DNA from: a virus | Reading direction: 5' to 3' (one strand) | Virus record (IMG/VR): IMGVR_UViG_3300045988_099754 | Location: 1 to 15,488 of that record | DNA length: 15,488 bases | Shown here: positions 922 to 15,488 of the stretch, in pieces | Layout: each line of letters starts with the position of its first letter | How positions within the stretch are numbered: position 1 is the stretch's first letter | Translations under genes and position numbers: made by a program | The notes under the pieces: generated by a model | Told to the model about the DNA's origin: nothing | What the model saw: the letters and a program-made list of their open reading frames with translations, nothing else | Databases searched by the model: none

Positions 922-1374
922 ATGATTAAATATAGACTTCATAACATCACAGATTTTGGTGTAGAACTTCATGACTTCTACACTGAAAACTCACTAAATA
1001 ACTACATAGCCTTGTTTGTAGATTCTCCATATTGGGTTGAAAATTTAGAAACACATGAAAATGTGTATACAGGTTTTGATGGGCATAGCGAAACTCATTT
1101 AGTTAATGAAAATACAGTAGTTACCCCCAATAAATTAGGCGACTTAAATGTTTCACGTGAAACATTACATGAAAGTGAAATAGAATGGATAAAAAGACAC
1201 AATCTTGTAGAAGAAAAAGAGCCATACACTAAATCAGAAAAAATATCCTATTTATTAGCCATCTTATCTGTCATTGTCATGACAACATTTTTACTATATC
1301 TTTTCTTATCTTATGTATCATTTATAGCAGAGCACTTTTCAGAGTTCACTTGGAAAGTATTTAATATTTTATAA
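922..1374 (+). CDS. Early tail-anchored membrane protein (150 aa)
   Basis: SD GAGGAGGG at 905-912. The C-terminal hydrophobic stretch ISYLLAILSVIVMTTFLLYLFLSYVSFI suggests a transmembrane anchor. The coding sequence contains a perfect parS palindrome at 1147-1166. Confidence 0.65.
   Translation: MIKYRLHNITDFGVELHDFYTENSLNNYIALFVDSPYWVENLETHENVYTGFDGHSETHLVNENTVVTPNKLGDLNVSRETLHESEIEWIKRHNLVEEKEPYTKSEKISYLLAILSVIVMTTFLLYLFLSYVSFIAEHFSEFTWKVFNIL
1147..1166. promoter_or_regulatory. parS: parS-like site 1 (perfect, inside a CDS)
   Basis: AATGTTTCACGTGAAACATT. The 16-bp core at 1149-1164 equals the Firmicute parS consensus TGTTTCACGTGAAACA. It is translated as N-V-S-R-E-T-L. Confidence 0.7.
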
Positions 1375-1385
1375 GGAGGAAAATC

Positions 1386-1577
1386 ATGGCAAAATTAACA
1401 AACCAATTATTACGCTACAAAGTGATGTTTACGAAAGGAGGTACGGGCGGTTACACCGCTCGTGTCATGATACCAAAAGAAGCAATACGCGATTTAGATA
1501 TTCACCCGGGGGACAGTATCGAATATACACGTGTTCCACACGGGTTATTATTAAGAAAAGTTGAGAGAGGAGAATAA
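1386..1577 (+). CDS. AbrB/SpoVT (MazE-like) DNA-binding protein (63 aa)
   Basis: ARVMIPKEAIRDLDIHPGDSIEY matches the looped-hinge-helix signature of SpoVT/AbrB domains (compare the RVvIPkeiRe.LgikpGD pattern). SD AGGAGG. The gene sits just upstream of the terminal protein and polymerase genes, where the regulator gene 4 sits in phi29. Confidence 0.6.
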   Translation: MAKLTNQLLRYKVMFTKGGTGGYTARVMIPKEAIRDLDIHPGDSIEYTRVPHGLLLRKVERGE

Positions 1578-1579
1578 GA

Positions 1580-2290
1580 ATGGTAAATAAGAGTATAAAA
1601 AAGAAACAAACAAAGAAGCAAATTATACAAAATCTATACTCTAAAGAGTATACTAATTATCTTGCTCGTGTTAGAAATCAGCAAAAGCAAGGGGTGCAAG
1701 TAAAAATAATTAAACGTGTTAAAAACCCTACTGAAGCTTCTATTAGAGTATTAAAAGAGCAGACAGCTAAAAAAATACGTGAGAAAGCGGCAGTTGTTGA
1801 TATGCTTACTGGTGAAAAAATAGAAGCTAATGAGTACGGACGTAAGCACGCGCTTGAAAGAAATAGGGTTTTCATTAAGTTGACGCCACAAGAACAAGAA
1901 TACGCTAGAGTACAAGGTTATACCACGGTAGAAGAATTGAAAAAGCTACAAAGGACAGGTGTAATAGTTATTGAAGCAACAACTGTACTAGATTATGAAG
2001 CAATTATAGATTCATGGTATGATTCATTAGAAAGTTTTGCCCCAAAAACAGCGAGTTATCTTAGAGAAAAAACAGACGCTTTACTGGCTAATGCGTCAGA
2101 TAAAGAAAGAGCGGTATTTGCTTATACATATGCAAAAGAACCCGAAACATTTCCAACAGAGCCATATATGGACAAAGCAACGGTTGACGCTGTGTTTTGG
2201 AATATTTTGCGTAGAATGGGCGTTCTTATCACAACAGAAGATTTTCAAGAATTTTTACAAGAACAAGACCTTGTTATTGAAAAAGAATAA
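1580..2290 (+). CDS. Putative terminal protein (replication primer, 236 aa)
   Basis: Lies immediately upstream of, and is translationally coupled to, the protein-primed DNA polymerase, as phi29 gene 3 is to gene 2. It has a lysine-rich N-terminus (KSIKKKQTKKQ) and an acidic C-terminus. The size is typical of terminal proteins. The call rests on synteny and composition only. Confidence 0.5.
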   Translation: MVNKSIKKKQTKKQIIQNLYSKEYTNYLARVRNQQKQGVQVKIIKRVKNPTEASIRVLKEQTAKKIREKAAVVDMLTGEKIEANEYGRKHALERNRVFIKLTPQEQEYARVQGYTTVEELKKLQRTGVIVIEATTVLDYEAIIDSWYDSLESFAPKTASYLREKTDALLANASDKERAVFAYTYAKEPETFPTEPYMDKATVDAVFWNILRRMGVLITTEDFQEFLQEQDLVIEKE

Positions 2291-2305
2291 AAAGAGGTGA
2301 GTATA

Positions 2306-4192
2306 ATGCCACGAAAAAAGAATATAACCTTTTGGGCTTGTGATTTTGAGACAACTGTTTGGGGTGAAAAAGTAGAGCAAGAAAAAGGTAAAAAACAAGA
2401 TTGTACAGAGGTATGGAGTGGTGCTGACGTGGCTTTATACGACGAAACCGAAACCGTAACAATAACACATTCTATCAGAGATTTTTTAAATAGATTTTTG
2501 GCAATGAAAGGAAATAATATATTATACTTTCATAATCTCGCTTTTGATGGTTCTTTTATAGTTGATTTTCTTTTGAGAGAGGGGTGGCAATGGGTACATT
2601 GCAAAGACAAAGAAATGAAGTCAAAGGAGTTCCAAACTTGCATATCTGATATGGGGTCATGGTATTGGATTAAGTTAAAATGGAATAAGACCTTTTTAGA
2701 AATTCGAAATTCTTTAAAGCTTATGCCGTCGTCATTAAAAAATATCGGAAAATCATTTGGGACAAGGCATCAAAAATTAGATATGGATTATGAGGGCGAG
2801 AGATATGCTTATTGTGAGATATCAGAAAGCGAGAAGAAATATATTAAAAATGACGTGCTAGTGTTAAAAGAAGCGTTAGAAATGATGTTTAATGAAAAAC
2901 ACGATAAACTAACGATAGGGTCATGTTGTCTATTAGAATTTAAAGGATTTTATGATGGTAAACAATATGATAAGTTGTTTCCCGATATCAGAGAGGATTA
3001 CTTGGACGAATCTATGACAGGCGTATGGAATCAGTGGGACTATATACATAAATCATATCACGGTGGGTGGTGCTATGTGAACCCTCAATACGCCCATACG
3101 GTAGTGGGTGACGGGTTAGTATATGATGTAAACTCTCTTTATCCGTCCATGATGCACAGCATTAGTGGTAACAAATATCCGTTTGGTCATGGGGAATATC
3201 ATAGAGGAACACCACCCGATGAACTTATAAGCTCTACTAATAAATATTTTTTTATTCGATTTAACTGCCGTTTTCAGTTAAAACGAGGCGCTTTTCCATG
3301 GGTACATATTAGACATAGTGCATTATATAAAGCGAATGAAAATTTATATAGTTCTAACGTTAGATACAAAGGCGAATATTATAGATATTATCGCGATATT
3401 GAGGGTCAGATGCATGATACTAATATTACTCTTACTATGACTTGTACTGACTGGAAGTTATTCCAAGAAACTTATGATATCTACGATTTGGTTATCTACG
3501 ATTATGTGTGGTTCTATGCTAGAGAGGGTTTTTTTGATGAATATATAGATAAATATGGAGAAGAAAAGAGAACGTCAAAAGGTTTTAAGAGACAGAAAGC
3601 TAAACTCTTTTTGAATAATCTTTACGGCAAATTTGCCATGTCGGATAACTCTTCCTATAAAGAGCCTTATCTTGATGAAGATGGGATTATCAGATTTATC
3701 TTGCATGAGGAACATGAGAAGAAAGTGGGGTATATCCCGATTGGTAGTGCTATTACTTCTTACGCTATGAACTTTACAATTCGTCACGCTATGGCGAATT
3801 ATGATAGGTTTTGCTATGCTGATACGGATTCTATACATTTGATAGGTCTTGATAAGGCGAATAAGGTCGTAGAACATCAAACGAATTTTTGCTGTTGGAA
3901 ATGTGAGAGTACATTTGATTTCGCGTATTATGAACGACAAAAAACTTATGCAGAACATATAGTTGAAGAGAATCATGAGCCTTGCGACCCTTACCTTGAC
4001 ATTAAAGCTTGTGGCATGAGTAATCAAGCGAAACGAAAATTTATAGAAGAGGGAAAAGACATCTCTGAATTATCGACAGGGCTTAGCATGGAAACCTGTA
4101 ATTTGAAAGCAGAGCGCGTGAGGGGAGGTATTGTGTTAAGGAATAAAGACTTTAACATTCATCAGCAAAAAGATAAAAAAATTATGATATAA
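2306..4192 (+). CDS. Family-B DNA polymerase, protein-primed (phi29 gp2-like)
   Basis: Exo I: FWACDFETT. Exo II: YFHNLAFDGSFIVDFL. Exo III: YIKNDVLVLKEAL. Motif A: YDVNSLYPSMM. Motif B: KLFLNNLYGKFA. Motif C: YADTDSIHL. All closely match the phi29 polymerase motifs. I place the start at ATG 2306 (SD AGAGGTGA at 2293-2300) rather than the ORF-track start at GTG 2297. Confidence 0.95.
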   Translation: MPRKKNITFWACDFETTVWGEKVEQEKGKKQDCTEVWSGADVALYDETETVTITHSIRDFLNRFLAMKGNNILYFHNLAFDGSFIVDFLLREGWQWVHCKDKEMKSKEFQTCISDMGSWYWIKLKWNKTFLEIRNSLKLMPSSLKNIGKSFGTRHQKLDMDYEGERYAYCEISESEKKYIKNDVLVLKEALEMMFNEKHDKLTIGSCCLLEFKGFYDGKQYDKLFPDIREDYLDESMTGVWNQWDYIHKSYHGGWCYVNPQYAHTVVGDGLVYDVNSLYPSMMHSISGNKYPFGHGEYHRGTPPDELISSTNKYFFIRFNCRFQLKRGAFPWVHIRHSALYKANENLYSSNVRYKGEYYRYYRDIEGQMHDTNITLTMTCTDWKLFQETYDIYDLVIYDYVWFYAREGFFDEYIDKYGEEKRTSKGFKRQKAKLFLNNLYGKFAMSDNSSYKEPYLDEDGIIRFILHEEHEKKVGYIPIGSAITSYAMNFTIRHAMANYDRFCYADTDSIHLIGLDKANKVVEHQTNFCCWKCESTFDFAYYERQKTYAEHIVEENHEPCDPYLDIKACGMSNQAKRKFIEEGKDISELSTGLSMETCNLKAERVRGGIVLRNKDFNIHQQKDKKIMI

Positions 4193-4195
4193 TAC

Positions 4196-4227
4196 TTGAC
4201 TATATATAGTTGTTGTGTTATTATAAT
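4196..4227 (+). promoter_or_regulatory. Sigma-A-type promoter for the DNA-binding-protein module
   Basis: TTGACT at 4196-4201, a 17-nt spacer, then the extended -10 TGtTATTAT at 4216-4224, overlapping TATAAT at 4222-4227. The architecture resembles the ITR promoter (ACTTGAC ... GT-rich ... TATTATAAT). Confidence 0.65.
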
Positions 4228-4295
4228 AATGTAATAAATAAAACATATTACATTACATTCACACTCACAGAAAGCAGAAAAAAGGAGGAAAAAAG

Positions 4296-4595
4296 ATGTT
4301 TACAAGAACATTAGTAACGGCAGAGGTTTCAGTAGAAAGAATCTACAAAGACAAGGACACGGGAGAAATCAAGAAAGATTGCTTTGACGAAAAATTGCCA
4401 AATTGCAAGACAAGAGACAAAGCAGAAATCTTGATTGAAAAGCAGTACAAAGGCGATATTGTTTCCATTTTGGATATTAAATTCAAATTAGAGAAACGCG
4501 TTATGACTGATGAACAGTTCTTATTAAATTCAGATGTTAAGAGCGAGAAAATCGTTACCGAAGCAGAATTACAGGAAATGAAAAAGGAAGATTAG
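4296..4595 (+). CDS. Possible phi29 p6-like dsDNA-binding (histone-like) protein (99 aa)
   Basis: Strong SD AAGGAGG. EKQYKGDIVSILDIK and the later EQFL resemble phi29 p6 (KRKYKGEPVQVVSVE ... EKFL) as I remember it. The C-terminus is acidic, and the gene is adjacent to the p5-like gene as in phi29. This needs a real alignment. Confidence 0.4.
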   Translation: MFTRTLVTAEVSVERIYKDKDTGEIKKDCFDEKLPNCKTRDKAEILIEKQYKGDIVSILDIKFKLEKRVMTDEQFLLNSDVKSEKIVTEAELQEMKKED

Positions 4596-4620
4596 CAGGA
4601 AAAACAGGAGGTAGACTATT

Positions 4621-4971
4621 ATGGTAGAAGTTAAAGAAATGAGCAGAGAATTCACAAAGGTTGAGAAGTATCTTATGACTACAGCGCCGGACATTGAGCC
4701 GTTAAAAAATATCGCGGACGGAAAATCTATTCCGATAGACGGATATATTATTTTTGATGATATCAAAGATAACGGAGATGTGCAGGAGATTGTATCTATT
4801 ATTACACCGGACAAGAAAGTATACTCCGGACAGTCTGCAACCTTTAAACAGTCTTTGAAAGATATTGAAAATGTAATGGAGGGTGAGAAGTTTTCTATTG
4901 TTAAAATTAGCGGAAAGACAAAAGCAGGGCGTGATTATATTAATTGCATTTTAGACGTGTCAAATTTATAA
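4621..4971 (+). CDS. Possible phi29 p5-like ssDNA-binding protein (116 aa)
   Basis: KNIADG ... QEIVSIITPDKKVYSGQSATF ... EKFSIVKISGKTKAGRDYINCIL parallels the phi29 p5 pattern (KNLPDG ... ETVTTIFAADGSLYSAISKTV ... ETFKVKVVQGTSSKGNVFFSLQL), recalled from memory. A terminator follows. Confidence 0.45.
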   Translation: MVEVKEMSREFTKVEKYLMTTAPDIEPLKNIADGKSIPIDGYIIFDDIKDNGDVQEIVSIITPDKKVYSGQSATFKQSLKDIENVMEGEKFSIVKISGKTKAGRDYINCILDVSNL

Positions 4972-5010
4972 AATGATGCCGTGGGAATACCATTTTAATT
5001 CTCTTCTTCT

Positions 5011-5039
5011 AGAGGGGTGGCTATATGCCACCTCTTTTA
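5011..5039 (+). terminator. Rho-independent terminator
   Basis: AGAGG(GG)TGGC - TATAT - GCCACCTCT followed by TTTTAT. This is a 9-bp GC-rich stem with a 2-nt bulge. It ends the 4196-promoter module and may be leaky. Confidence 0.7.
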
Positions 5040-5046
5040 TAAAATA

Positions 5047-5066
5047 AATGTTTCACGTGAAACATT
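5047..5066. promoter_or_regulatory. parS: parS-like site 2 (perfect)
   Basis: AATGTTTCACGTGAAACATT. It directly abuts the SD AGGAGG (5067-5072) of the packaging ATPase gene. Confidence 0.7.
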
Positions 5067-5080
5067 AGGAGGTGTTAAAA

Positions 5081-6127
5081 ATGAAAAATGATGGTTATTA
5101 TCATTGCGATAGATTGTTGACTTTAAAAGATAAAAACGGGAATACACCCGATATTTATATTGTGGACGGCAATAGAACGGCAGGTAAAAGTTATTCTATT
5201 AAGTGTAGACAGGTATCTGATTTTTTAAAAGATAAATATAGACCCGAAAATCAATTTATTTATTTATATAGGAACGTTGTTGATATGAAAAACTGTACAG
5301 ACACATATTTTGGCGATATATCTGAAAAATTCGAGGGTTATGTTATGACTGAAAAAAGTTTGATGAACGGTTCTTTGATTCAATTATTTTTGAATGAAGA
5401 GCCATGCGGTTATTGTTTAGCTTTGTCTGTTGCTAGAAAATATAAAAAAATGCGTGGGTTATTTGTGAATGTCCGTTCTGTATTTTTTGATGAATATCAA
5501 GACGAGGATAATGTATATTTATCAAATGAGGTGAATAAACTTTTATCGTTGCTTACAACTATTAGTGCAGGACACGGAAAGCAACATAGAAGAGTTATGC
5601 TATATATGGCTTCAAATACTGTGTCACTATTAAACCCTTATTATAATGTGTTTGGGATTAACAAAATGTTAAAATACAACACTAAATTTTTACGAGGTGA
5701 CGGTTGGGTATTTGAGCGGACGTATAATGAAAATGCGTCTACAGCTTATCAGGAAAGTGGTATTGCGCGAGCGTTTCAAGGTGCTAGTTATAATGAATAC
5801 GCGAGCGAAAATAAATATCTAAACGACAACGATTGTTTAATCGGTAAACCTAGCGGACAATCGCGTTATATTTGTACAATTAGGTTTAATGAAAAAATGT
5901 ACAATGCAAGAAGATATGATGCTTGTATATATATATCAACAGGGGCAGATGAAAGTTTTCCGATACGTATATGCTTTACAAAAAATGATGTCATAGACAA
6001 CACAGCTATACGAGTGAATTCAACCCATTATATCGTCACGATGCTACGGGAATATTTCAACAGAGGATTGCTTTTATTTGAAAATTTAGAATGTAAGAAC
6101 ATGATATTTGATGTCATATCGTTTTAA
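5081..6127 (+). CDS. DNA encapsidation ATPase (phi29 gp16-like)
   Basis: Walker A GNRTAGKSY and Walker B VFFDEYQ. QFIYLYR, NEVNKLLSLL and SNTVSLLNPYY parallel phi29 gp16 (GARGIGKSY, QFIYVRR, FDEF, NEVSALLNL, SNAVSVVNPYF). I place the start at ATG 5081, 8 nt after the SD, rather than GTG 5072. Confidence 0.9.
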   Translation: MKNDGYYHCDRLLTLKDKNGNTPDIYIVDGNRTAGKSYSIKCRQVSDFLKDKYRPENQFIYLYRNVVDMKNCTDTYFGDISEKFEGYVMTEKSLMNGSLIQLFLNEEPCGYCLALSVARKYKKMRGLFVNVRSVFFDEYQDEDNVYLSNEVNKLLSLLTTISAGHGKQHRRVMLYMASNTVSLLNPYYNVFGINKMLKYNTKFLRGDGWVFERTYNENASTAYQESGIARAFQGASYNEYASENKYLNDNDCLIGKPSGQSRYICTIRFNEKMYNARRYDACIYISTGADESFPIRICFTKNDVIDNTAIRVNSTHYIVTMLREYFNRGLLLFENLECKNMIFDVISF

Positions 6128-6145
6128 TGTTTCACGTAAAACATT
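6126..6145. promoter_or_regulatory. parS: parS-like site 3 (15/16 core)
   Basis: AATGTTTCACGTAAAACATT. It overlaps the ATPase stop codon, and its last two bases are the first two of the -35 TTGACA at 6144-6149. Confidence 0.65.
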
Positions 6146-6172
6146 GACAGTTTAAATTATATATGCTATAAT
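6144..6172 (+). promoter_or_regulatory. Consensus sigma-A promoter driving a non-coding transcript
   Basis: TTGACA at 6144-6149, a 17-nt spacer, then TGcTATAAT at 6164-6172. A second TATAAT sits at 6173-6178. No ORF or SD follows for about 200 nt. Confidence 0.75.
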
Positions 6173-6178
6173 TATAAT

Positions 6179-6291
6179 GTACCCAAAATAATACGAACAT
6201 TGTAATTGATATACGCGCACATAGACAAGTAGTCTGATATCAATTTTTTGGCGTTGCGTTCCCTTTGATTCGATTATTTTGTTACGTACAT
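6179..6291 (+). ncRNA. Candidate packaging RNA (pRNA-like structured ncRNA)
   Basis: This is the only sizeable non-coding gap and it has its own consensus promoter. Folding by eye gives a terminal helix: 6179-6182/6286-6289, 6184-6192/6273-6281 and 6194-6197/6269-6272. That helix closes a three-way junction. Arm I is 6204-6212/6237-6245, with a 10-nt 5'-side loop ACGCGCACAU and an apical hairpin 6223-6226/6232-6235. A U-rich junction spans 6246-6249. Arm II is a short hairpin at 6250-6263 with loop CGUUGCGUU. The 3' end is uncertain: either the T6 at 6244-6249 or the parS hairpin plus T-run ending near 6330. Confidence 0.45.
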
Positions 6292-6292
6292 A

Positions 6293-6326
6293 TGTTTCAC
6301 GTGGGCAATGTTTCACGTGAAACATT
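6293..6326. promoter_or_regulatory. parS: parS-like site 4 (perfect) with a degenerate upstream copy
   Basis: TGTTTCACGTGGGCAA (6293-6308, 12/16) is followed by AATGTTTCACGTGAAACATT (6307-6326, perfect core at 6309-6324). The centres are 16 bp apart. The site ends 5 nt before the -35 of the late promoter. A T6 run follows, so it could also act as an RNA hairpin terminator. Confidence 0.7.
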
Positions 6327-6331
6327 TTTTA

Positions 6332-6360
6332 TTTACAAGCAGTTCTATTTGTGTTATGAT
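6332..6360 (+). promoter_or_regulatory. Late (lysis and structural) operon promoter
   Basis: TTTACA at 6332-6337, a 17-nt spacer, then the extended -10 TGtTATGAT at 6352-6360. SD AAGGAGGTGG and the holin ATG at 6381 follow. Confidence 0.65.
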
Positions 6361-6380
6361 AGAAAAAAGGAGGTGGTAAT

Positions 6381-6605
6381 ATGCAGGAAATCATGACAAT
6401 GATTAACACTTTAGGCGTACCAACAGCCGTAGCTATAGCTTCTATGTGGTATGTGAAATATCGAGAAGATAAAAATGATGAACGCCTAGAGAATTTGAAT
6501 GAAGCGCATAAACAGGAAATGACAGATATCACAGAAGCGTTGAACAACAACACACTTGCGCTTCAAAGAATATGCGATACATTTGAACAAAAAAGGGAGG
6601 ATTAA
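6381..6605 (+). CDS. Holin, BhlA/UviB-like (74 aa)
   Basis: A single N-terminal transmembrane segment (LGVPTAVAIASMWYV) is followed by a charged coiled-coil tail (KYREDKNDERLENLNEAHKQE...), the BhlA-family layout. The gene lies directly upstream of the endolysin. Confidence 0.6.
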   Translation: MQEIMTMINTLGVPTAVAIASMWYVKYREDKNDERLENLNEAHKQEMTDITEALNNNTLALQRICDTFEQKRED

Positions 6606-6607
6606 AC

Positions 6608-7597
6608 ATGGCAGTAAAAAAAGCAGTAGACATTTCATATCACAATGGGGTTATTGATTTTGAACGATTAAAAAACGCTGTAGACTATGTTATCATTCGT
6701 TGCGGATATGGACAAGATATGGCATCACAGGATGATAAACAATGGATTCGAAATGTTGGTGAATGTGAAAGATTAGGAATTCCATACGGAGTATATTTCT
6801 ATTCCTACGCAAAAACAACAGCAAAAATCGAGGGCGAAATTAGACACTGCCTTAGATTGTTACAAGGTCACACACCTACTCTTCCTGTATTTTTCGACAG
6901 TGAAGAAAAAGGAACGCAAGGAGTTGCAAAGCACAACGCAAAGCGTTTTTGTGATGCGATGCTGACGAACGGTTATAAGGCAGGAATCTATGCTAGTAAA
7001 TCATGGTTCGAGAATTATATTGGCGAAACATGGGGATATGATTTATGGATAGCTCGGTACGCGAATGTGTTAGGTGTAGATAATGTGGACATATGGCAGT
7101 ATTCCAGTAATGGCTCTGTTGACGGTATTAATGGAAGATGCGATGTGAATCACGTGTATAAAGACTATGGAGCTTCAAGTGCTACGCCTACTATACCGCA
7201 GCCCCCTACTAGTCAAGCAAAATCAAGAAATGAATTAATTGCTTTAGGTCAACAGCACGCTATTAATTTTACAGGTATTCAGATTGCTGTAGACGGGATT
7301 GTTGGGAGAAACACAAAAAGAATGGCTGTACGTGTCGTGCAAAGAGCTATGAATGCGGATTATGGTTATACCATTGCAGAGGACGGAATTGTAGGCAAAA
7401 AGACAAGAGCAAAAGCAGGAAAGCATTATGTCAAGCGAGGAGAAACGCAGTATCTTGTCACAGCTCTTGAAATCTTGTGTTTGTTGCAAGGAAAAGACCC
7501 GAACGGTGTCGAATGTCCGGGAACATTTGGCGGAGGTCTTGCACGCGCTTGTGGTAGTGGATTTGTCTACGCAAAAGATATGCTATATATGTTATAA
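6608..7597 (+). CDS. Endolysin: GH25 muramidase plus two peptidoglycan-binding repeats
   Basis: N-terminal GH25 hallmarks: VDISYHNG, IIRCGYG, FFDSEE, WIARY, IWQYSSNGSVDGINGRCDVN. The C-terminus has two PG_binding_1-like repeats (VDGIVGRNTKRMAVRVVQRAMN and EDGIVGKKTRAKAGK). Confidence 0.9.
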   Translation: MAVKKAVDISYHNGVIDFERLKNAVDYVIIRCGYGQDMASQDDKQWIRNVGECERLGIPYGVYFYSYAKTTAKIEGEIRHCLRLLQGHTPTLPVFFDSEEKGTQGVAKHNAKRFCDAMLTNGYKAGIYASKSWFENYIGETWGYDLWIARYANVLGVDNVDIWQYSSNGSVDGINGRCDVNHVYKDYGASSATPTIPQPPTSQAKSRNELIALGQQHAINFTGIQIAVDGIVGRNTKRMAVRVVQRAMNADYGYTIAEDGIVGKKTRAKAGKHYVKRGETQYLVTALEILCLLQGKDPNGVECPGTFGGGLARACGSGFVYAKDMLYML

Positions 7598-7600
7598 TTT

Positions 7601-7639
7601 CTATTCACGTGAAGCAAAAAATGTTTCACGTGAAACATT
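7601..7639. promoter_or_regulatory. parS: parS-like site 5 (perfect) with a degenerate upstream copy
   Basis: CTATTCACGTGAAGCA (7601-7616, 12/16) and AATGTTTCACGTGAAACATT (7620-7639, perfect core at 7622-7637). The centres are 21 bp apart. The pair lies between the endolysin and tail-lysin genes. Confidence 0.7.
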
Positions 7640-7659
7640 TTAAGGGGGGTAGTAAAAAA

Positions 7660-8667
7660 ATGCCAAATATTAATGTAGCGTATCAATGGGCGGTCAATGC
7701 GTGCAATGCCCCTAATATTGGCTATTCACAGCAATACCGAAGAGGGCAGACCGTGAACGGCATTACTTATTATGATTGCAGTTCTTTTATATCAAAAGCG
7801 CTAACAGAAGCAGGATTTTTCTCACCGAACCCATGGTTCACGACAAGAACCGAGGAGGGCTATCTATTACAGGCAGGGTTTAAAGAAATCAGCATTAATG
7901 AAGCGTGGCAGGCAGGGGACATTGTTTGGCGTAGCGGTCACACGGAAATGGTATATAGCGGAAATGGTGTTGGAGGTGGAGGTGTCACCATGGGAGCGCA
8001 CAGTGGGCGTTATCCATTGCCCGAACAAGTAAGTATTAATTCCCATGTGTCGAAACCGTCCGCTTGGACAAAGATATATAGATATGGTGACAGTGCAGGA
8101 ATGCCCCTTGAATGGATTCACGGAAACCGTTATCTCACAGAAGATGAAATGAAAAACAACGCTTATGTATTCTATAGCACAATGTTTTTTAAAGATTTCA
8201 CTTTGAACGCTATTGCAGGAATGTTAGGTAATATGGAGATAGAATCCAATATCAATCCCGAATTATGGCAGTCACTAAAAGAGGGAAACTATAACGGTGG
8301 TTATGGACTTGTACAATGGACTCCAGCCACAGTCTACACAGACTGGGCGAACGCTCACGGGTATGATATCACAGACGGTTACTATCAATGTGTTTGGCTC
8401 GATGAAGAAACAGTAAGTAGTGGACAGTGGATTGAGACCACGAAATATCCGATATCGTGGGAAGAGTTTAGAAAGTCCACAAAAGAACCTGATTATCTCG
8501 CGTCAGTATTTCTAAAAAATTTCGAGCGTGCAGGAGTAGAAAAAGAAGAGGAGCGGAAAAAGAACGCGCTAAAATGGTATGCATATTTGCAGACATTATC
8601 ACCCTACCCAATCCACCCACATTCAAGAAAAACAAAAATGCCTCTTTACTTTTTCTTTCCGTGGTGA
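7660..8667 (+). CDS. Two-domain peptidoglycan hydrolase, probably virion/tail-associated (335 aa)
   Basis: The N-terminus resembles the Amidase_5-type Cys/His hydrolase of streptococcal phage lysins (YSQQYRRG...YYDCSSFISKALTEAGF...GDIVWRSGHTEMVY; compare Dp-1 Pal YSMDFRDG..YDCSS...GDIF..GHTGM). The C-terminus resembles the phage tail lysozyme domain (LGNMEIESNINPE...GGYGLVQWTP). I place the start at ATG 7660 after GGGGGG/AGTAAAAAAA. The ORF-track start at 7609 would read through the parS palindrome. Confidence 0.75.
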   Translation: MPNINVAYQWAVNACNAPNIGYSQQYRRGQTVNGITYYDCSSFISKALTEAGFFSPNPWFTTRTEEGYLLQAGFKEISINEAWQAGDIVWRSGHTEMVYSGNGVGGGGVTMGAHSGRYPLPEQVSINSHVSKPSAWTKIYRYGDSAGMPLEWIHGNRYLTEDEMKNNAYVFYSTMFFKDFTLNAIAGMLGNMEIESNINPELWQSLKEGNYNGGYGLVQWTPATVYTDWANAHGYDITDGYYQCVWLDEETVSSGQWIETTKYPISWEEFRKSTKEPDYLASVFLKNFERAGVEKEEERKKNALKWYAYLQTLSPYPIHPHSRKTKMPLYFFFPW

Positions 8668-9020: not shown

Positions 9021-10289
9021 ATGGCAGATGCAACAAATAAAAATATTTTAAAAGCGATAAGACAGGAACTTTCTTTTGAGGTGCAGAATCATTTACCTGT
9101 GGAAGTTTCAGACAATTTACAGAGTGTTTATGATAATATTCTGAATTATGCCCCTGTTAGAAATGAAATTGTACCATCATTAATTAATCGTATTGGTATG
9201 CAGACCGTGGACAGCATCGCGTGGAGAAACCCGTTAGCGCGGTTCAAAAAAGAGCCTATGCGTTACGGTGAAACGCATGAAGAGACATACGTGAATATGT
9301 GCAAAGGACGTGTCTATGATTCACAAGCAGATTTTAAATTTGCATTTCAGCAGTATCAGTCTTACATCATGAGCGTGTTTCACAATGTCAATCTTGAAAT
9401 TCAGTATCCTGTTACTGTTACTTACGACAATCTGAGAAAAGCTTTTACAAGCGAATATGGAATCCGTGATATGATTATGGCAAAAATGGAGAGTGCTATC
9501 ACAGGTGCGAACTGGGACGAATATCTTGCTATGCGTGATTTGATTAATGTTGGCTATGAAAAAGAGGTGCTTCCAGCAGTGACCGTTGACGCGATTGTCG
9601 ATGAAGCATCGGCGAAAAAATTACTGATTGAAGTAAAAAGAGCAGTTGGCGAGTTTGGTTTTCCGTTGCCTGAAAACAACCCAGCAGGGGCGACTTCTCA
9701 TGCTATGCCTACCAACCTTATTTGGATTACAACGCCTGAAGTTAATGCTCAGATTAGCGTTGACGCATTAGCATATGCGTTCCATATGGACAAGGCAGAC
9801 GTAGCAGTTCAGACGGTCATTGTAGACAAATTTGCCAATGACGCAATACAGGGAGTTCTTTGTGATGTGCGATTCTTCAACGTGCGCGACCAGTTCAAGG
9901 ACATGACAGACCAACGACTTGCGAATGTCTTATCTTGGAACTACTTCTATACACAGGTGGAAATGGTAAGCGCAAGTCCGTTCTATCCGATTCGTGTATT
10001 TACAACAGATACGGTTGTTGATGCACCGACTCTTAGTGTTAAGGCAGGAACTTACACAGCAGGACAGACACAGGAAGTAGAGGTCACTGTCACAGGTGGA
10101 ACAGGAACATATCATCAGAATTTAGTTACTCTTGAAGTAGACAGCGGTGCTACCTCAGCTAAGACGTATGTAATCCCCGGTACACATCTCTTACACACGG
10201 GAGCGGACGAGACGGGAACAATTGTGTTAAAGGCAATTTACAGACCTAATGAGACTATCACAAAAACAGCTAGTTTCACAAAAGCGTAA
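9021..10289 (+). CDS. Major capsid protein (phi29 gp8-like) with a C-terminal Ig-like domain
   Basis: SLINRIGMQ, NPLARFKKE, LRKAFTS, WDEYLAMRDL, ALAYAFHM and SWNYFYTQ parallel phi29 gp8 (SLVDRIGL, NPLKKFKKG, LKTAF, DEYEYMKLL, LAKAFNM, YWNYYYH). The C-terminal beta-rich segment TLSVKAGTYTAGQTQEVEVTVTGGTG... looks like a BIG2-type domain. Confidence 0.9.
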   Translation: MADATNKNILKAIRQELSFEVQNHLPVEVSDNLQSVYDNILNYAPVRNEIVPSLINRIGMQTVDSIAWRNPLARFKKEPMRYGETHEETYVNMCKGRVYDSQADFKFAFQQYQSYIMSVFHNVNLEIQYPVTVTYDNLRKAFTSEYGIRDMIMAKMESAITGANWDEYLAMRDLINVGYEKEVLPAVTVDAIVDEASAKKLLIEVKRAVGEFGFPLPENNPAGATSHAMPTNLIWITTPEVNAQISVDALAYAFHMDKADVAVQTVIVDKFANDAIQGVLCDVRFFNVRDQFKDMTDQRLANVLSWNYFYTQVEMVSASPFYPIRVFTTDTVVDAPTLSVKAGTYTAGQTQEVEVTVTGGTGTYHQNLVTLEVDSGATSAKTYVIPGTHLLHTGADETGTIVLKAIYRPNETITKTASFTKA

Positions 10290-10310: not shown

Positions 10311-11927
10311 ATGATAAATTTACCAGTACAGGGAGGGGTCGCACCACGCGACCCCGAAACAAAATTGAGATTATATAGCGGAGTGCCATGGTCTGATGAA
10401 TATGAACACGTTAGACTGTATAACTCAAAAGATGATTTATTGAACCATTTAGAGTTATATCGTAAACGCATTAACGGTATTGATTTATCACATCTTGCCC
10501 CTATAAAGGTCGGGAGTTATGATATTCGTGTACCTTTCACAGAAATGAAAGCACTTAATCTAAATTATTTAGCTTTCCAGAATAGTGGTATTTCTAATGA
10601 ATGGGTATTTTGCTTTATTGACTCTATCGAATGGTTATCAGAAAAAACAACTAGAATTAACTTCTCTTTAGACGTTTTTCAGAACAATTTTTATAGCGCA
10701 AATATTAAGCCATGCTTTGTAGAATATCACCATATCCCAAGAAGTGCTGACGGGATAGGGGTAAATATAACACCCGTAAATATCGAAACAGGTGAAACAA
10801 TCGTATCACGTCATAAAAAACTAGACTTAACACCGACGGAATGTTGTGCTTTTGTAACAAGAGGAACATCCGAACAGAGTTGGTTTGAGGGTCGGGTGGA
10901 AAATGGCGTTTATTGTTGGGGTAGTATTGGTCATTATGACGTAACTACAGATGATGGTCTAAAAGGAATTAATACACTGTTAGAAGATTATAATACCCAA
11001 GGCGCGCAAGATGCAGTAATAGGATTGTTCATGTCTCCTAAATTATGTACACTTGCATTGGGAGGAAAAGAGATAAAACCAAAAATAACGTCCATGCAAA
11101 TTTCCGACAACGTTTTTGAGGGCTATAAACCGAAGAACAAAAAGTTATATTCTTATCCATGGTTATTTTGCTTAGCTGACAACAACCAAGGTAATACACA
11201 TATTTACAGATATGAATACAGTTATAACCGAGATAAATCTCTTGAGTTCGAAAGCTACGGAACAATAGCAACATTACCGCAAGTTTTGACAGCACCTAAA
11301 AATTATAAAACACGCGAAGAACTAGGACACGGATTAATGAACGAAGCTCTTATTAACTCCTCATTTCCTATGTGTTCTTTTTCCTCTGACACTTATCGCG
11401 CATGGCTCGCGCAAAACAAAAGTTCTATAGCTCTATCACAAGTTCACACCGCCGTAGATGCTACCATAGGAACAGGCACAGCTATAGCAGGCTTGGCAGG
11501 TGGAAGTTTACAAGGAGGTCTTAGCGGTCTTGGCAAAACAACAAACGCTTTTTGGGACGCGCTTGGAATGTTAGCGAATCAGACAGACAGGGCAAGGAAC
11601 GCAGGAGTTACACATGGCAAAGCATTATCAGAAAATGTGTTGACTGGAATCAAAGAATGCGGTGTTGATTTCTATGAAATGTCCTGTAAAAAACAATTTG
11701 CGGAAATGGCAGATAGCTTTTTTGAGCAATTTGGTTACCCTATTAATAAGATTACTACCCCTTATTTACATTCGAGACACTATTGGAATTATGTGAAAAC
11801 CTCTCATTGCGGATTCACGGGTAATATTGAATTAGACCAGTTGAAAAAATTGAGAAATATATTTGACAACGGTGTGACTTTGTGGCATACTGATGATATA
11901 GGGAACTATGGTCTATCCAACGATTAA
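10311..11927 (+). CDS. Tail knob / distal tube protein (phi29 gp9-like)
   Basis: N-terminus: YLAFQNSGISNEWVFCFIDSIEW...FSLDVFQNNFY versus gp9 YIMFQNADYGNKWFYAFVTELEF...FEIDVLQTWMF. C-terminus: FFEQFGYPINK...NYVKTSHC...LRNIFDNGVTLWHTDDIGNY versus FFHKYGYKINR...NYVQTKDC...IRTIFDNGITLWHTDNIGNY. Confidence 0.88.
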   Translation: MINLPVQGGVAPRDPETKLRLYSGVPWSDEYEHVRLYNSKDDLLNHLELYRKRINGIDLSHLAPIKVGSYDIRVPFTEMKALNLNYLAFQNSGISNEWVFCFIDSIEWLSEKTTRINFSLDVFQNNFYSANIKPCFVEYHHIPRSADGIGVNITPVNIETGETIVSRHKKLDLTPTECCAFVTRGTSEQSWFEGRVENGVYCWGSIGHYDVTTDDGLKGINTLLEDYNTQGAQDAVIGLFMSPKLCTLALGGKEIKPKITSMQISDNVFEGYKPKNKKLYSYPWLFCLADNNQGNTHIYRYEYSYNRDKSLEFESYGTIATLPQVLTAPKNYKTREELGHGLMNEALINSSFPMCSFSSDTYRAWLAQNKSSIALSQVHTAVDATIGTGTAIAGLAGGSLQGGLSGLGKTTNAFWDALGMLANQTDRARNAGVTHGKALSENVLTGIKECGVDFYEMSCKKQFAEMADSFFEQFGYPINKITTPYLHSRHYWNYVKTSHCGFTGNIELDQLKKLRNIFDNGVTLWHTDDIGNYGLSND

Positions 11928-11939
11928 GGAGGTGATATT

Positions 11940-12839
11940 ATGCGAAACCCTTTAAGAGTTTTTGAAAAATGTAAGAATAAAAAAATCATTGATGATTTTG
12001 AAACAATCAAAACAATTTATTTCTATGACATTTTCGATATATTTGTAAATCGGTATCAATGGCATAACTTGCCTGAAGAAATTTTACCAATGTACATTGA
12101 ACAAACACTATTTTGGCATGGACTTGGTGTATTCATCAAAGACGATATCGCAGGATACGCTTTTATGAAAGTTGCATTATCGGGTTTGCCCGATATTTAC
12201 AATATTCCTCAAGATAGAATTGCTTACACAGCTAATGGCTATATAGAGGAATACGGTAAAGAAAATAGTTGTATATTATGGAACAATTACTCAACAATGC
12301 CGTACTACTACAAAGCTTTAATGTACGCTGACAGTATGGCGAATACTTGGAAAACAAAAGGAATTAATATGTATGCACAGCGTACACCTGTTGCACTTTC
12401 CTCATCAGACAACGAAAAACTGAGCTTTGAAGTTGTAGGCGAAGAATACGACAACTATTTACCTATTCTAAAACTTTCCGATTCGTTAAACTTAAAAGAT
12501 ATTAAAGCTTTGAACATGGGCGCACCTTACATTGTTGATAAATGTGAACAAGAATTGAGAGATTTATGGTCACAAGTGCTAACATCTTTAGGATATGAAA
12601 GTAACCCAGTAGAAAAAGGAGAGCGCCTTGTAACTGGTGAGACAGCAGGAAACAACGGACAGATTGAAGCCAATAGAAATGTTGGACTGACATTAAGAAG
12701 AAGATGTGCGAACGCTATTAACGAATTATGGGGACTCAATGTGTCCGTTGATTTCAATAGCGAGTTGCCGACCATGATTAACGGATATATACCCGAAAAA
12801 TATATGCAAAAAGGGAAAGAGGGTGACGAGATTGAGTAA
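11940..12839 (+). CDS. Head-tail connector / portal (phi29 gp10-like, upper collar)
   Basis: YQWHNLPEE, AQRTPVAL, APYIVDK, KGERLVTGE and INELWGLNVSVDF match phi29 gp10 (FEWENLPP, AQKTPVLI, APYVVDK, KKERMVTDE, INELYGLNVKVKF). Confidence 0.92.
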   Translation: MRNPLRVFEKCKNKKIIDDFETIKTIYFYDIFDIFVNRYQWHNLPEEILPMYIEQTLFWHGLGVFIKDDIAGYAFMKVALSGLPDIYNIPQDRIAYTANGYIEEYGKENSCILWNNYSTMPYYYKALMYADSMANTWKTKGINMYAQRTPVALSSSDNEKLSFEVVGEEYDNYLPILKLSDSLNLKDIKALNMGAPYIVDKCEQELRDLWSQVLTSLGYESNPVEKGERLVTGETAGNNGQIEANRNVGLTLRRRCANAINELWGLNVSVDFNSELPTMINGYIPEKYMQKGKEGDEIE

Positions 12840-13533
12840 ATACACTACAACTATAAAAGATATTTGTGAAAGCTTTATCCCACCACAAGAATTATGGAGC
12901 ATGGATTTATCTGTTCAAAGAATCATTGATAAAACACAGAGCAAATTCTTTGACTTTGATTTTCCTTTTTATTCTGAGGATAGGAAAGACTTGTATACTT
13001 TTAAGGTATACTTTTTACTTAGGTATTGGAATAATTATATAGGCTTTGAAACTCTAGGAATGTGGAAAACAGCTTTTATGGCAAAAATGCATGAACTTAC
13101 TCCATATTATACAAAATTGTATAACGCGATTCAAAATGATAACCCTTTTACAAATGTAAATATAACAATAACAGAAGCAGAAAAAGAAAACGAAAAAACA
13201 ACAACTAATTCAACAGATGCAGGACAAAGCGAAGTAAAAAACAACCAAAATTATCAAAATATTGATAGTGATAACCCACAAGTTACCGTAGCAACACAAG
13301 ATTATGCAAGTGCTATGAGCAGGGGAGAAACCATCAATAACACTACGACAACGGCAAACAATAACCATGCAGGAAACGACAACAAAGACAGCAAAAGAGA
13401 CAGAGACACAAAAGAGATAGGATTGAGAGGAAAATCAACAAGCGAAGCAATAGCAGAATATCGTGAGCAAATTCAAAATATCAACAGAGAACTTGTAGAA
13501 GCTTGTCGCGATTTATTCATGAAAATTTGGTAA
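12832..13533 (+). CDS. Lower collar protein (phi29 gp11-like position)
   Basis: Directly follows and overlaps the connector gene, as gene 11 follows gene 10 in phi29. It has an N/T-rich central loop region. The start is ambiguous: GTG 12823 (ORF track) has almost no SD spacing, while TTG 12832 lies 5-7 nt after AGAGGGTGA. The call is mainly from synteny. Confidence 0.55.
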   Translation: MSKYTTTIKDICESFIPPQELWSMDLSVQRIIDKTQSKFFDFDFPFYSEDRKDLYTFKVYFLLRYWNNYIGFETLGMWKTAFMAKMHELTPYYTKLYNAIQNDNPFTNVNITITEAEKENEKTTTNSTDAGQSEVKNNQNYQNIDSDNPQVTVATQDYASAMSRGETINNTTTTANNNHAGNDNKDSKRDRDTKEIGLRGKSTSEAIAEYREQIQNINRELVEACRDLFMKIW

Positions 13534-14407: not shown

Positions 14408-15115
14408 ATGAGTTCAACAAACAAAACAAATTATTATGACTTAAGTCAGTATATTGGTACTGACAAACCGACATACTTAGGAGACTACAACTCCGATATG
14501 TCTAAAATTGATGCAGGGATTCACGGTGTAGAGGACAAAGCTACCACAGCTTCACAGAACGCAGGAAGTGCAATTGCTAGAGTTAGCGAGGTAGAAAAAA
14601 CAGTGTCAGCACATACAGAAAGCATTACAACATTACAGGGCGATGTAAAAGGTTTAAAAGATAGTGTTAAAACTGCACAGAATACAGCTGCAGACGGCGT
14701 TCAAAAAGCTGAAAACGCGCAACAGACAGCTAACAGCGCACTTTTAACAGCAAATAATGCGAGTGCAAAAGCTGATAATGTCAATAAAGATGTAACGTTG
14801 TGGACAGGTACAAGTAAAAATTCACCTATCACATTAAATGACAGTTTAACCAATTATAGATTTTTATACATCGAAACAAACGAGGGCATTACGCCTGTTT
14901 TCCCTCTCAGAAATGATAAAAAGAAATACGTAGGTTGTCAGCAGGTTATATCGGCAGGTTCTTCTAACACTGTTGTTACTATTTCAATTAAAATAACTGT
15001 TAGTGATGATACACACATCACAATTTTAACTAATGCTATGGACCACAGTTTCAGTGACGGTCACCCATCATTAGACGCAATTGCTGTACTAGGTGTGTAT
15101 GGCATTCCAAGATAA
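14408..15115 (+). CDS. Tail fibre / receptor-binding protein (235 aa)
   Basis: The N-terminal motif NYYDLSQYIGTDKPTYLGDYNSDMSKIDAGI is typical of Firmicute phage fibre N-termini. An alanine/glutamine-rich coiled-coil stalk and a C-terminal beta-rich head of about 100 aa follow. It is the last late gene before the terminator. Confidence 0.6.
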   Translation: MSSTNKTNYYDLSQYIGTDKPTYLGDYNSDMSKIDAGIHGVEDKATTASQNAGSAIARVSEVEKTVSAHTESITTLQGDVKGLKDSVKTAQNTAADGVQKAENAQQTANSALLTANNASAKADNVNKDVTLWTGTSKNSPITLNDSLTNYRFLYIETNEGITPVFPLRNDKKKYVGCQQVISAGSSNTVVTISIKITVSDDTHITILTNAMDHSFSDGHPSLDAIAVLGVYGIPR

Positions 15116-15130
15116 TAATGGTGCGATATA

Positions 15131-15166
15131 AAAACCCCTCCTACAATTGAGGGGTTTTATTTTTAT
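15131..15166. terminator. Bidirectional rho-independent terminator
   Basis: AAAACCCCTC (15131-15140), an 8-nt loop, then GAGGGGTTTT (15149-15158). It is flanked by a T-run on the + strand (ATTTTTATT) and by TTTTTATAT when read on the - strand. It separates the convergent late operon and the right-end ORF. Confidence 0.85.
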
Positions 15167-15172
15167 TCCTCC

Positions 15173-15349
15173 TTAATTAATATTTTTATCTATCATTTCT
15201 CGCCTTAGTTCTTCTAACTCCTGCTCTAACTCCTTTTCTTTAATATATGCATATTCACTTTCTGGATACTTTTTCGAAAAATCGTATGCTTTAGCCCATT
15301 GATTTAATAATGCCTCGTATGCTAATTTATATAATCTTGATTCTACCAT
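15173..15349 (-). CDS. Right-end early protein, unknown function (58 aa, absent from the ORF track)
   Basis: Minus-strand ATG at 15349-15347; its A is the last base of the right ITR. It uses the ITR-borne promoter and SD AAGGAGG. Translation: MVESRLYKLAYEALLNQWAKAYDFSKKYPESEYAYIKEKELEQELEELRREMIDKNIN, with stop TAA at 15175-15173. Predicted helical. Confidence 0.6.
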   Translation of the reverse strand: MVESRLYKLAYEALLNQWAKAYDFSKKYPESEYAYIKEKELEQELEELRREMIDKNIN

Positions 15350-15488
15350 TTTTATTCCTCCTTATTTTATGCGTTATCTTTGTTTCTATAATTATAATAC
15401 CACACACACACCCGATTATTTGTCAAGTATTTTTTCATGCTTTTTTAAACAAATGGGGGTCGTGGTCTCATTGGGAATAACGTAAGCC
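15349..15488. repeat. Right inverted terminal repeat (140 bp)
   Basis: Exact reverse complement of 1-140. Confidence 0.95.
15391..15426 (-). promoter_or_regulatory. Early promoter inside the right ITR (mirror of 63-98)
   Basis: Exact reverse complement of the left ITR promoter. TTGACA at 15426-15421 and TATTATAAT at 15399-15391 on the minus strand. Confidence 0.5.

Follow-up and report, generated by a model that had tools for sequence, protein, structure and literature searches.

The IMG/VR stretch IMGVR_UViG_3300045988_099754 (15,488 nt; the whole of it is called the window below) raises the question of why a phi29-like podovirus genome without partition genes should carry five copies of a palindrome that is identical to parS, the chromosomal loading site of ParB (Spo0J) in Firmicutes, and of which protein reads them. 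Judging from sequence comparison, we consider it somewhat probable that the palindromes are genuine chromosomal-type parS sites, on which host ParB would load and through which the phage DNA would be carried with the host chromosome. Several other explanations were weighed against this reading as the evidence accrued, and each of them was judged unlikely.

Five copies of the chromosomal parS palindrome

A motif scan found the 16-bp palindrome TGTTTCACGTGAAACA as perfect copies at 1149-1164, 5049-5064, 6309-6324 and 7622-7637, and as a copy with one mismatch, TGTTTCACGTAAAACA, at 6128-6143. A 20-bp form, AATGTTTCACGT(G/A)AAACATT, was common to all five copies. Both the positions and the longer form had been put forward in an earlier note made from the letters of the window alone, and the scan confirmed them. 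In the following, AATGTTTCACGTGAAACATT is the parS sequence of this phage, of which site 3 is a G-to-A variant. All 16 bases of the motif agreed with the chromosomal parS consensus, TGTTNCACGTGAAACA (PMC7022226), which gives good support to the note's reading of it as parS. The five sites, none of which has an assigned strand, were as follows:

1147-1166 (core 1149-1164), no strand: parS site 1, perfect; within a poorly conserved early open reading frame (ORF; 922-1374), at the edge of the hypervariable left end
5047-5066 (core 5049-5064), no strand: parS site 2, perfect; preceded by a GC-rich hairpin with a T-run (about 5011-5037) and adjoining the ATPase ribosome-binding site
6126-6145 (core 6128-6143), no strand: parS site 3, one mismatch; directly after the stop of the ATPase gene (6127)
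6307-6326 (core 6309-6324), no strand: parS site 4, perfect; also the 3' arm of a terminator
7620-7639 (core 7622-7637), no strand: parS site 5, perfect; between the endolysin stop and the ribosome-binding site of the tail-lysozyme gene

Chance was excluded as the origin of the array, as the note had held, because only 0.13 matches with up to three mismatches were expected (mean of 200 dinucleotide-preserving shuffles) and none of the 200 shuffles reached five. Four of the five sites were located in non-coding DNA, which constitutes approximately 7% of the genome by the gene list (binomial P for at least four of five, approximately 1e-4). The density of 0.32 sites per kb (about 1 per 3 kb) had been regarded as exceptional, a claim that was not supported, as phi29 reaches approximately 0.26 per kb with its five published sites and phiCPV4 carries seven sites in 18 kb. 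The location near the origin and near parAB that is usual for chromosomal parS was not found here; the sites lie on a phage genome, and no ParA or ParB domain was detected in the window by Pfam (20 ORFs) or PHROGs (10 ORFs), in agreement with the claim that the phage lacks parAB.

Conservation was analyzed in close relatives, namely 80 IMG/VR contigs and one contig from a metagenome-assembled genome (MAG), with capsids 88-98% identical and genomes at 80-89% DNA identity. The same five parS positions were kept in all of these relatives, a check that the earlier note had proposed. Among 81 sequences (80 relatives and the window), perfect sites numbered five in 34, four in 25, three in 18, two in 3 and six in 1, and the core columns were at least 97% conserved. 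The 20-mer of site 1 formed a conserved island, with approximately 97-100% conservation in 59 aligned relatives against 40-70% in its coding flanks. Site 2 was conserved in 76 relatives, and site 3, mismatched in the window, was perfect in 73 of 81 aligned sequences. The rare variants were single palindrome-breaking changes, and most of the variation fell on positions 19-20, the outermost 3' pair of the 20-mer. Since these variants were single and uncompensated, it is the DNA sequence that appears to be read, by a protein, and not an RNA stem. Strong purifying selection acts on the sites as DNA elements.

Identical 20-24-mers at module borders could also be expected if the palindromes were recombination junctions or mobile elements that mark module boundaries and drive mosaicism, and 7 relatives did show an identity jump at site 1, with a further jump near site 5 in about 6-10 relatives. 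Most breakpoints, however, fell on gene borders without parS (about 400-500, 900, 7100 and 14500) and none on sites 2 or 3. The exact parS sequence would moreover be left unexplained, and we regard recombination as the least probable of the explanations considered here.

Genes, promoters and RNA elements around the sites

The window comprised the complete 15.5-kb genome of a phi29-like podovirus, linear and of the protein-primed type; its completeness follows from perfect 140-bp inverted terminal repeats. Nearly every gene was carried on the + strand. A megablast search with the whole window returned no match among GenBank phages, and the best matches among cultured-phage capsids had approximately 30% identity or less. 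The following ends and genes were identified:

1-140, no strand: left inverted terminal repeat; partner 15349-15488, 140 nt, 100% complementary
1386-1577: AbrB/MazE-like protein, 63 aa (Pfam PF04014, E 8e-7)
2297-4192: protein-primed family-B DNA polymerase (Pfam, DNA_pol_B_2)
5072-6127: Gp16 packaging ATPase (Pfam)
6608-7597: GH25 endolysin (Pfam)
7609-8667 as called, probable start 7660: tail lysozyme (Pfam)
9021-10289: major capsid protein, Phi29-type (Pfam, Phi29_MCP)
10311-11927: gp9 tail knob (Pfam)
11940-12839: connector (Pfam)
12823-13533: lower collar protein (PHROGs)

The gene for the AbrB/MazE-fold protein was located just upstream of the probable terminal-protein gene and was limited to this phage clade. 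AbrB-type regulators govern transition-state and sporulation genes in Firmicutes. Three segments were hypervariable among the relatives, namely 1-1100 (left-end early ORFs), 7000-7500 (C-terminal part of the endolysin) and 14500-15488 (last tail gene and right end). Identity was 33-49% in the segments at both genome ends and approximately 76-79% in the endolysin part, against approximately 84% elsewhere.

The description of the sites as lying at module boundaries, given in the earlier note, was a fair one for sites 2-5, which are placed between genes; site 1 is inside the early ORF. Site 2 is flanked by an SSB-like gene upstream and the gp16-like packaging ATPase gene downstream, and the non-coding RNA locus that follows the ATPase gene has site 3 on one side and site 4 on the other. 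For the tail-lysozyme gene, the ORF call from GTG 7609 runs through site 5, and ATG 7660, preceded by AAGGGGGG, is the likelier start, which makes site 5 intergenic. Signals and RNA elements close to the sites were as follows:

6144-6172, +: sigma-A-type promoter TTGACA-17-TATAAT (12/12, with TG; promoter scan) for the non-coding RNA
6179-6289, +: conserved structured non-coding RNA with a 5'/3' closing helix, candidate prohead/packaging RNA
6292-6335, +: intrinsic terminator, composed of satellite 4 and the right half of site 4 (14-bp stem) and then TTTTTTATTT
6332-6360, +: promoter-like TTTACA-17-TATGAT (with TG), preceding the holin/lysis and late genes; conserved in relatives
7601-7616, no strand: satellite 5, CTATTCACGTGAAGCA / TTCACGTGAAGCA; 12/16 match to parS, starting 21 bp upstream of site 5

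The core of site 3 abuts the -35 box of the perfect promoter at 6144-6172, and site 4 lies 7 nt upstream of the -35 box of the promoter at 6332-6360. In relatives, the -35 box of the former promoter was conserved, and its -10 region and spacer were more variable. The RNA that starts from it lies directly downstream of the packaging ATPase gene and measures approximately 155 nt with its terminator. The structure is formed by the 110 nt between promoter and terminator hairpin. In the alignment of relatives, it comprised 43 pairs with 99% of cells paired, and compensatory changes were found at 8 pairs; none of 500 shuffles scored as high, and slid controls gave 0-2. A search of Rfam, including its packaging RNA (pRNA) family, gave no match to the RNA at E up to 1. 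Its size and its position next to gp16 mark this RNA as a candidate packaging RNA, and in view of its conserved, covarying structure and closing helix it may function in the manner of a pRNA.

Two partial copies of parS accompany the array, and both were found with the match and spacing given in the note. Satellite 4 (6293-6308, TGTTTCACGTGGGCAA, 12/16 match) starts 16 bp upstream of site 4; the bases that it retains are precisely those by which it pairs with the right half of that site. The resulting hairpin (-17.4 kcal/mol, z -5.4) is also helix 6 of the conserved RNA structure, and satellite 4 with site 4, downstream of the perfect promoter, was the only combination with the features of a rho-independent terminator. 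Satellite 5 and site 5 form a 13-bp hairpin (-17.7 kcal/mol). Through the hairpin with its upstream partial copy, site 4 clearly has a second role at the RNA level, and site 5 probably does as well.

These hairpins, the U-run that follows that of site 4, and the tandem pairs seen in other phages would also be in line with purely RNA-level elements that terminate or stabilize transcripts, with the match to parS being incidental. The 20-mer alone, however, folds weakly (-5.9 kcal/mol), sites 1 to 3 have no U-run, and the variants among relatives are uncompensated as described above. An element kept for its structure only would not be expected to stay the same to the letter among lineages with 20-30% protein identity, and this explanation is therefore considered very improbable.

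parS sites in phi29 and other phages

For phi29, five parS sites have been described, together with evidence that Spo0J helps to segregate the phage genome into the prespore (PMC2731898). In our scan of phi29, TGTTTCACGTGGAACA was found four times. Read on the opposite strand, as TGTTCCACGTGAAACA, this sequence is a perfect match to the consensus, and the phi29 sites are thus not merely parS-like. The note had rightly named phi29 as a precedent, and the contrast that it drew, with parS-like sites there and perfect ones here, was not upheld. One phi29 site (17243-17258) starts directly after the gp16 TAA stop at 17242, just as site 3 of the window (6128) starts after 6127, even though the proteins of the two phages are only distantly related. 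The slot at the first base after the gp16 stop was also used in other lineages of the sample (L172, L180, L188, L169, L149 and L231). Among further phages, the following counts were obtained:

Nf (B. subtilis): 2 parS sites
CH17P1 (Hungatella): 1 perfect parS, in the gap next to the tail-lysozyme gene, equivalent to site 5
CI55P1 (Clostridium_AQ): 1 perfect parS
CS229P3 (C. symbiosum): 1 perfect parS
phiCPV4 (C. perfringens): 3 perfect and 4 one-mismatch parS
Athos and CUB-FM (Enterococcus): each 1 perfect and 1 one-mismatch parS
Cp-7, DLc1, PumA2 and CPS1: no parS
Bifidobacterium, Arthrobacter and Curtobacterium phages: no parS

The parS sites of phiCPV4 (JQ729991.1) were located at 4812-4853, 7846-7886, 9949-9964 and 11824-11864, all intergenic and mostly as tandem pairs 25-26 bp apart. 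A SpoVG-like gene is annotated in the same record, and the genome paper of phiCPV4 does not mention parS sites (PMC3362512). The perfect parS of Athos (4788-4803) and that of CUB-FM (4741-4756) are preceded by a non-coding stretch ending in a terminator-like hairpin and followed by a TGGTATAAT promoter before the scaffold gene; the second, one-mismatch site of these phages lies in an early gene. In DLc1, a phi29-like phage of B. cereus without parS, the region 24761-26504 is annotated as encoding an FtsK-like DNA translocase and a plasmid replication-relaxation protein, which, by annotation only, might represent a different way of handling host segregation.

Among the IMG/VR matches listed for the exact 20-mer, 58 of 120 stretches were phi29-like, and many of the phi29-like stretches among them were only 20-50% protein-identical to this phage and carried 3-5 perfect sites. 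An unselected sample was composed of 80 gut phi29-like contigs chosen by capsid similarity alone, and 21 of these had 1-3 perfect sites (32 sites in 1.14 Mb). The parS trait is thus recurrent but patchy in phi29-like phages, with the present clade at the rich end of a trait that others share. Slots used repeatedly were the position directly after the ATPase stop, the gap from the DNA polymerase stop to the ATPase start (also in phiCPV4) and the gap from the capsid stop to the tail-knob start. Literature searches found no report of parS arrays in non-Bacillus phi29-like phages. Clusters of perfect parS were also present in viral contigs that are not phi29-like and have a GC content of 51-53% (L093 and L152; also L139 and L094). 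In L093, five sites (2657-3444) lie between a terminase large-subunit-like gene and an Sf6-type small-terminase gene, and in L152, an HK97-type phage, four sites (10835-13225) lie in the capsid and prohead-protease region.

This distribution bears on the protein that reads the motif. The sites could in principle be operators of a phage-encoded regulator such as the AbrB/MazE-like protein, which is encoded early, and sites do lie near promoters. The motif, however, equals the host parS at every position; phi29, phiCPV4, Athos and CH17P1 carry the same motif; and the early proteins unique to the clade, the AbrB-like one included, had no homologue in any other parS-bearing phi29-like lineage sampled. 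We therefore hold a phage regulator to be highly unlikely. Along with the RNA-only and recombination explanations, a phage-encoded binder is poorly supported. As no phage protein accompanies the motif from lineage to lineage, host ParB, a factor common to Firmicutes, is the most likely shared binder.

Even with ParB as the reader, the sites could serve mainly for transcription: bound where promoters and terminators adjoin the sites, ParB would be a roadblock or repressor and would make expression of the packaging RNA, of the ATPase and of the late genes dependent on the ParB/CTP state of the host. The promoter contacts of sites 3 and 4 and the position of site 2 between a T-run hairpin and a ribosome-binding site fit such a gate, as does the perfect site of Athos, which overlaps the region just upstream of its promoter. 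Across 140 phi29-like loci (the window and loci outside its clade), 90 of 142 perfect sites were intergenic, although non-coding DNA made up only 7.8% by a crude gene call, and 43 of 109 non-redundant site families had a ribosome-binding site and a start codon within approximately 40 nt downstream. Nearness to signals is, however, to be expected where the short spacers of compact genomes are the sole room for a 16-bp palindrome. Site 1 and most of the phi29 sites are inside genes, and a promoter-like -10 upstream of site 5 was not conserved in relatives. A special link between parS and terminators was considered and rejected: terminators adjoined 13 plus 6 of the 109 families, against 2.1% at random positions. 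Intergenic DNA by itself would give roughly this share, and placement alone is accordingly no proof of a transcriptional role. A gate as the main function, one of the roles listed in the note, is in our estimation unlikely.

A broader proposal would make parS arrays a general accessory of the protein-primed podoviruses of Firmicutes, those of Enterococcus included, with loaded ParB clamps being more than a segregation handle: they would sense the state of the host and thereby gate late transcription or packaging. The proposal draws on the repeated use of the same positions, which flank the packaging ATPase gene, adjoin the candidate packaging RNA or follow the capsid gene; we regard it as doubtful. 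Alternatively, replicating phage genomes might act as a decoy that titrates host ParB from the origin region, disturbing segregation, SMC loading or the initiation of sporulation. A high density of perfect consensus matches would suit a decoy, and so would the presence of parS in phages of non-spore-formers. The titration effect is nevertheless conjectural, many relatives have no site or one, and the phi29 data indicate that the phage has its own genome segregated, not that it sabotages its host, which leaves a decoy improbable.

Host ParB as the candidate reader of the array

We return to the preferred reading, in which the phage borrows the ParB of its host. ParB would nucleate at the five sites and, as a CTP-dependent clamp, spread over much of the 15.5-kb genome, by which the phage DNA would be tied to the origin-segregation machinery of the host. 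An infecting genome with a delayed lytic cycle would then be carried with the host chromosome, as reported for phi29, into the forespore if the host sporulates and otherwise into daughter cells. We infer that the phage may hitch-hike on host segregation in this manner, possibly into spores.

Several observations weigh against this reading. Spo0A boxes (TGTCGAA), which phi29 needs to pause its lytic cycle, were not enriched in the window (3 vs. 1.8 expected; 53 of 200 shuffles did as well), and all three were located inside the endolysin and tail-lysozyme genes, not near promoters. Perfect parS sites are carried by the Enterococcus phages Athos and CUB-FM. Enterococcus forms no spores, and entry into spores can therefore not be the general role of the sites. 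Spore hitch-hiking as the specific role, which the earlier note had listed first, was accordingly not supported. In addition, 59 of the 80 phages of the unselected sample had no perfect site, which indicates that the trait is dispensable, and the intergenic bias and promoter contact fit a transcriptional role equally well. The hints to the host are also weak: one relative was binned in an uncultured Clostridia MAG, and the nearest cellular homologues of the endolysin, at 45-50% identity, were found in Blautia. The host, a gut bacterium, is possibly, on these weak hints, a member of Clostridia.

The kind of feature described here is already known from phi29, and the present case extends a known trick rather than adding a new one. 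The novelty lies in the lineage, in the strict arrangement of five sites that contact promoters and a terminator, and in the evidence for the common occurrence of such sites among phi29-like phages from the gut and from clostridia. Should host ParB indeed load on the phage DNA, the borrowing of the host's segregation handle would not be peculiar to phi29 and would represent a recurrent strategy of small, strictly lytic human gut podoviruses as well as of C. perfringens and Enterococcus phages. It would offer a route of persistence, in spores or dividing cells, to phages that are unable to lysogenize, with a bearing on the survival and spread of gut phages. Candidates for therapy (phiCPV4-type phages and Enterococcus podoviruses) might hide in spores or carrier cells, and the cultured parS-bearing phages make the idea testable now.

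Among known systems, phi29 and Nf are likewise protein-primed phi29-like podoviruses that lack parAB of their own and carry several perfect consensus parS, and phi29 shares the site directly after the stop of the gp16 ATPase gene. They differ from the window in their capsids, with an identity of only approximately 26%. In phi29, three of four sites are inside genes, whereas four of five in the window lie between genes, where they contact a promoter, a terminator or a ribosome-binding signal; moreover, the window is without a Spo0A-box signal, and two of its sites form RNA hairpins with the partial copies next to them. phiCPV4 (Guelinviridae) is also a small protein-primed podovirus, and its seven parS sites are all intergenic, with one pair between the DNA polymerase stop and the ATPase start like site 2; it belongs to another family, has a known spore-former as host and carries full tandem pairs.

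With the chromosomal parS/ParB (Spo0J) system of Firmicutes, the window shares the identical 16-bp palindrome and several copies that are clustered as at origin regions. Here, in contrast, the sites are on a 15.5-kb lytic phage genome, not near oriC, and ParA/ParB are not encoded in cis; B. subtilis has 10 parS per genome (PMC7022226), compared with approximately one per 3 kb in this phage. P1 parS/ParB and the N15 sop system also represent phage genomes with centromere-like sites that couple them to active segregation. Those phages use their own ParA/ParB and element-specific sites, whereas the present phage has no such proteins and its site is the chromosomal one of the host.

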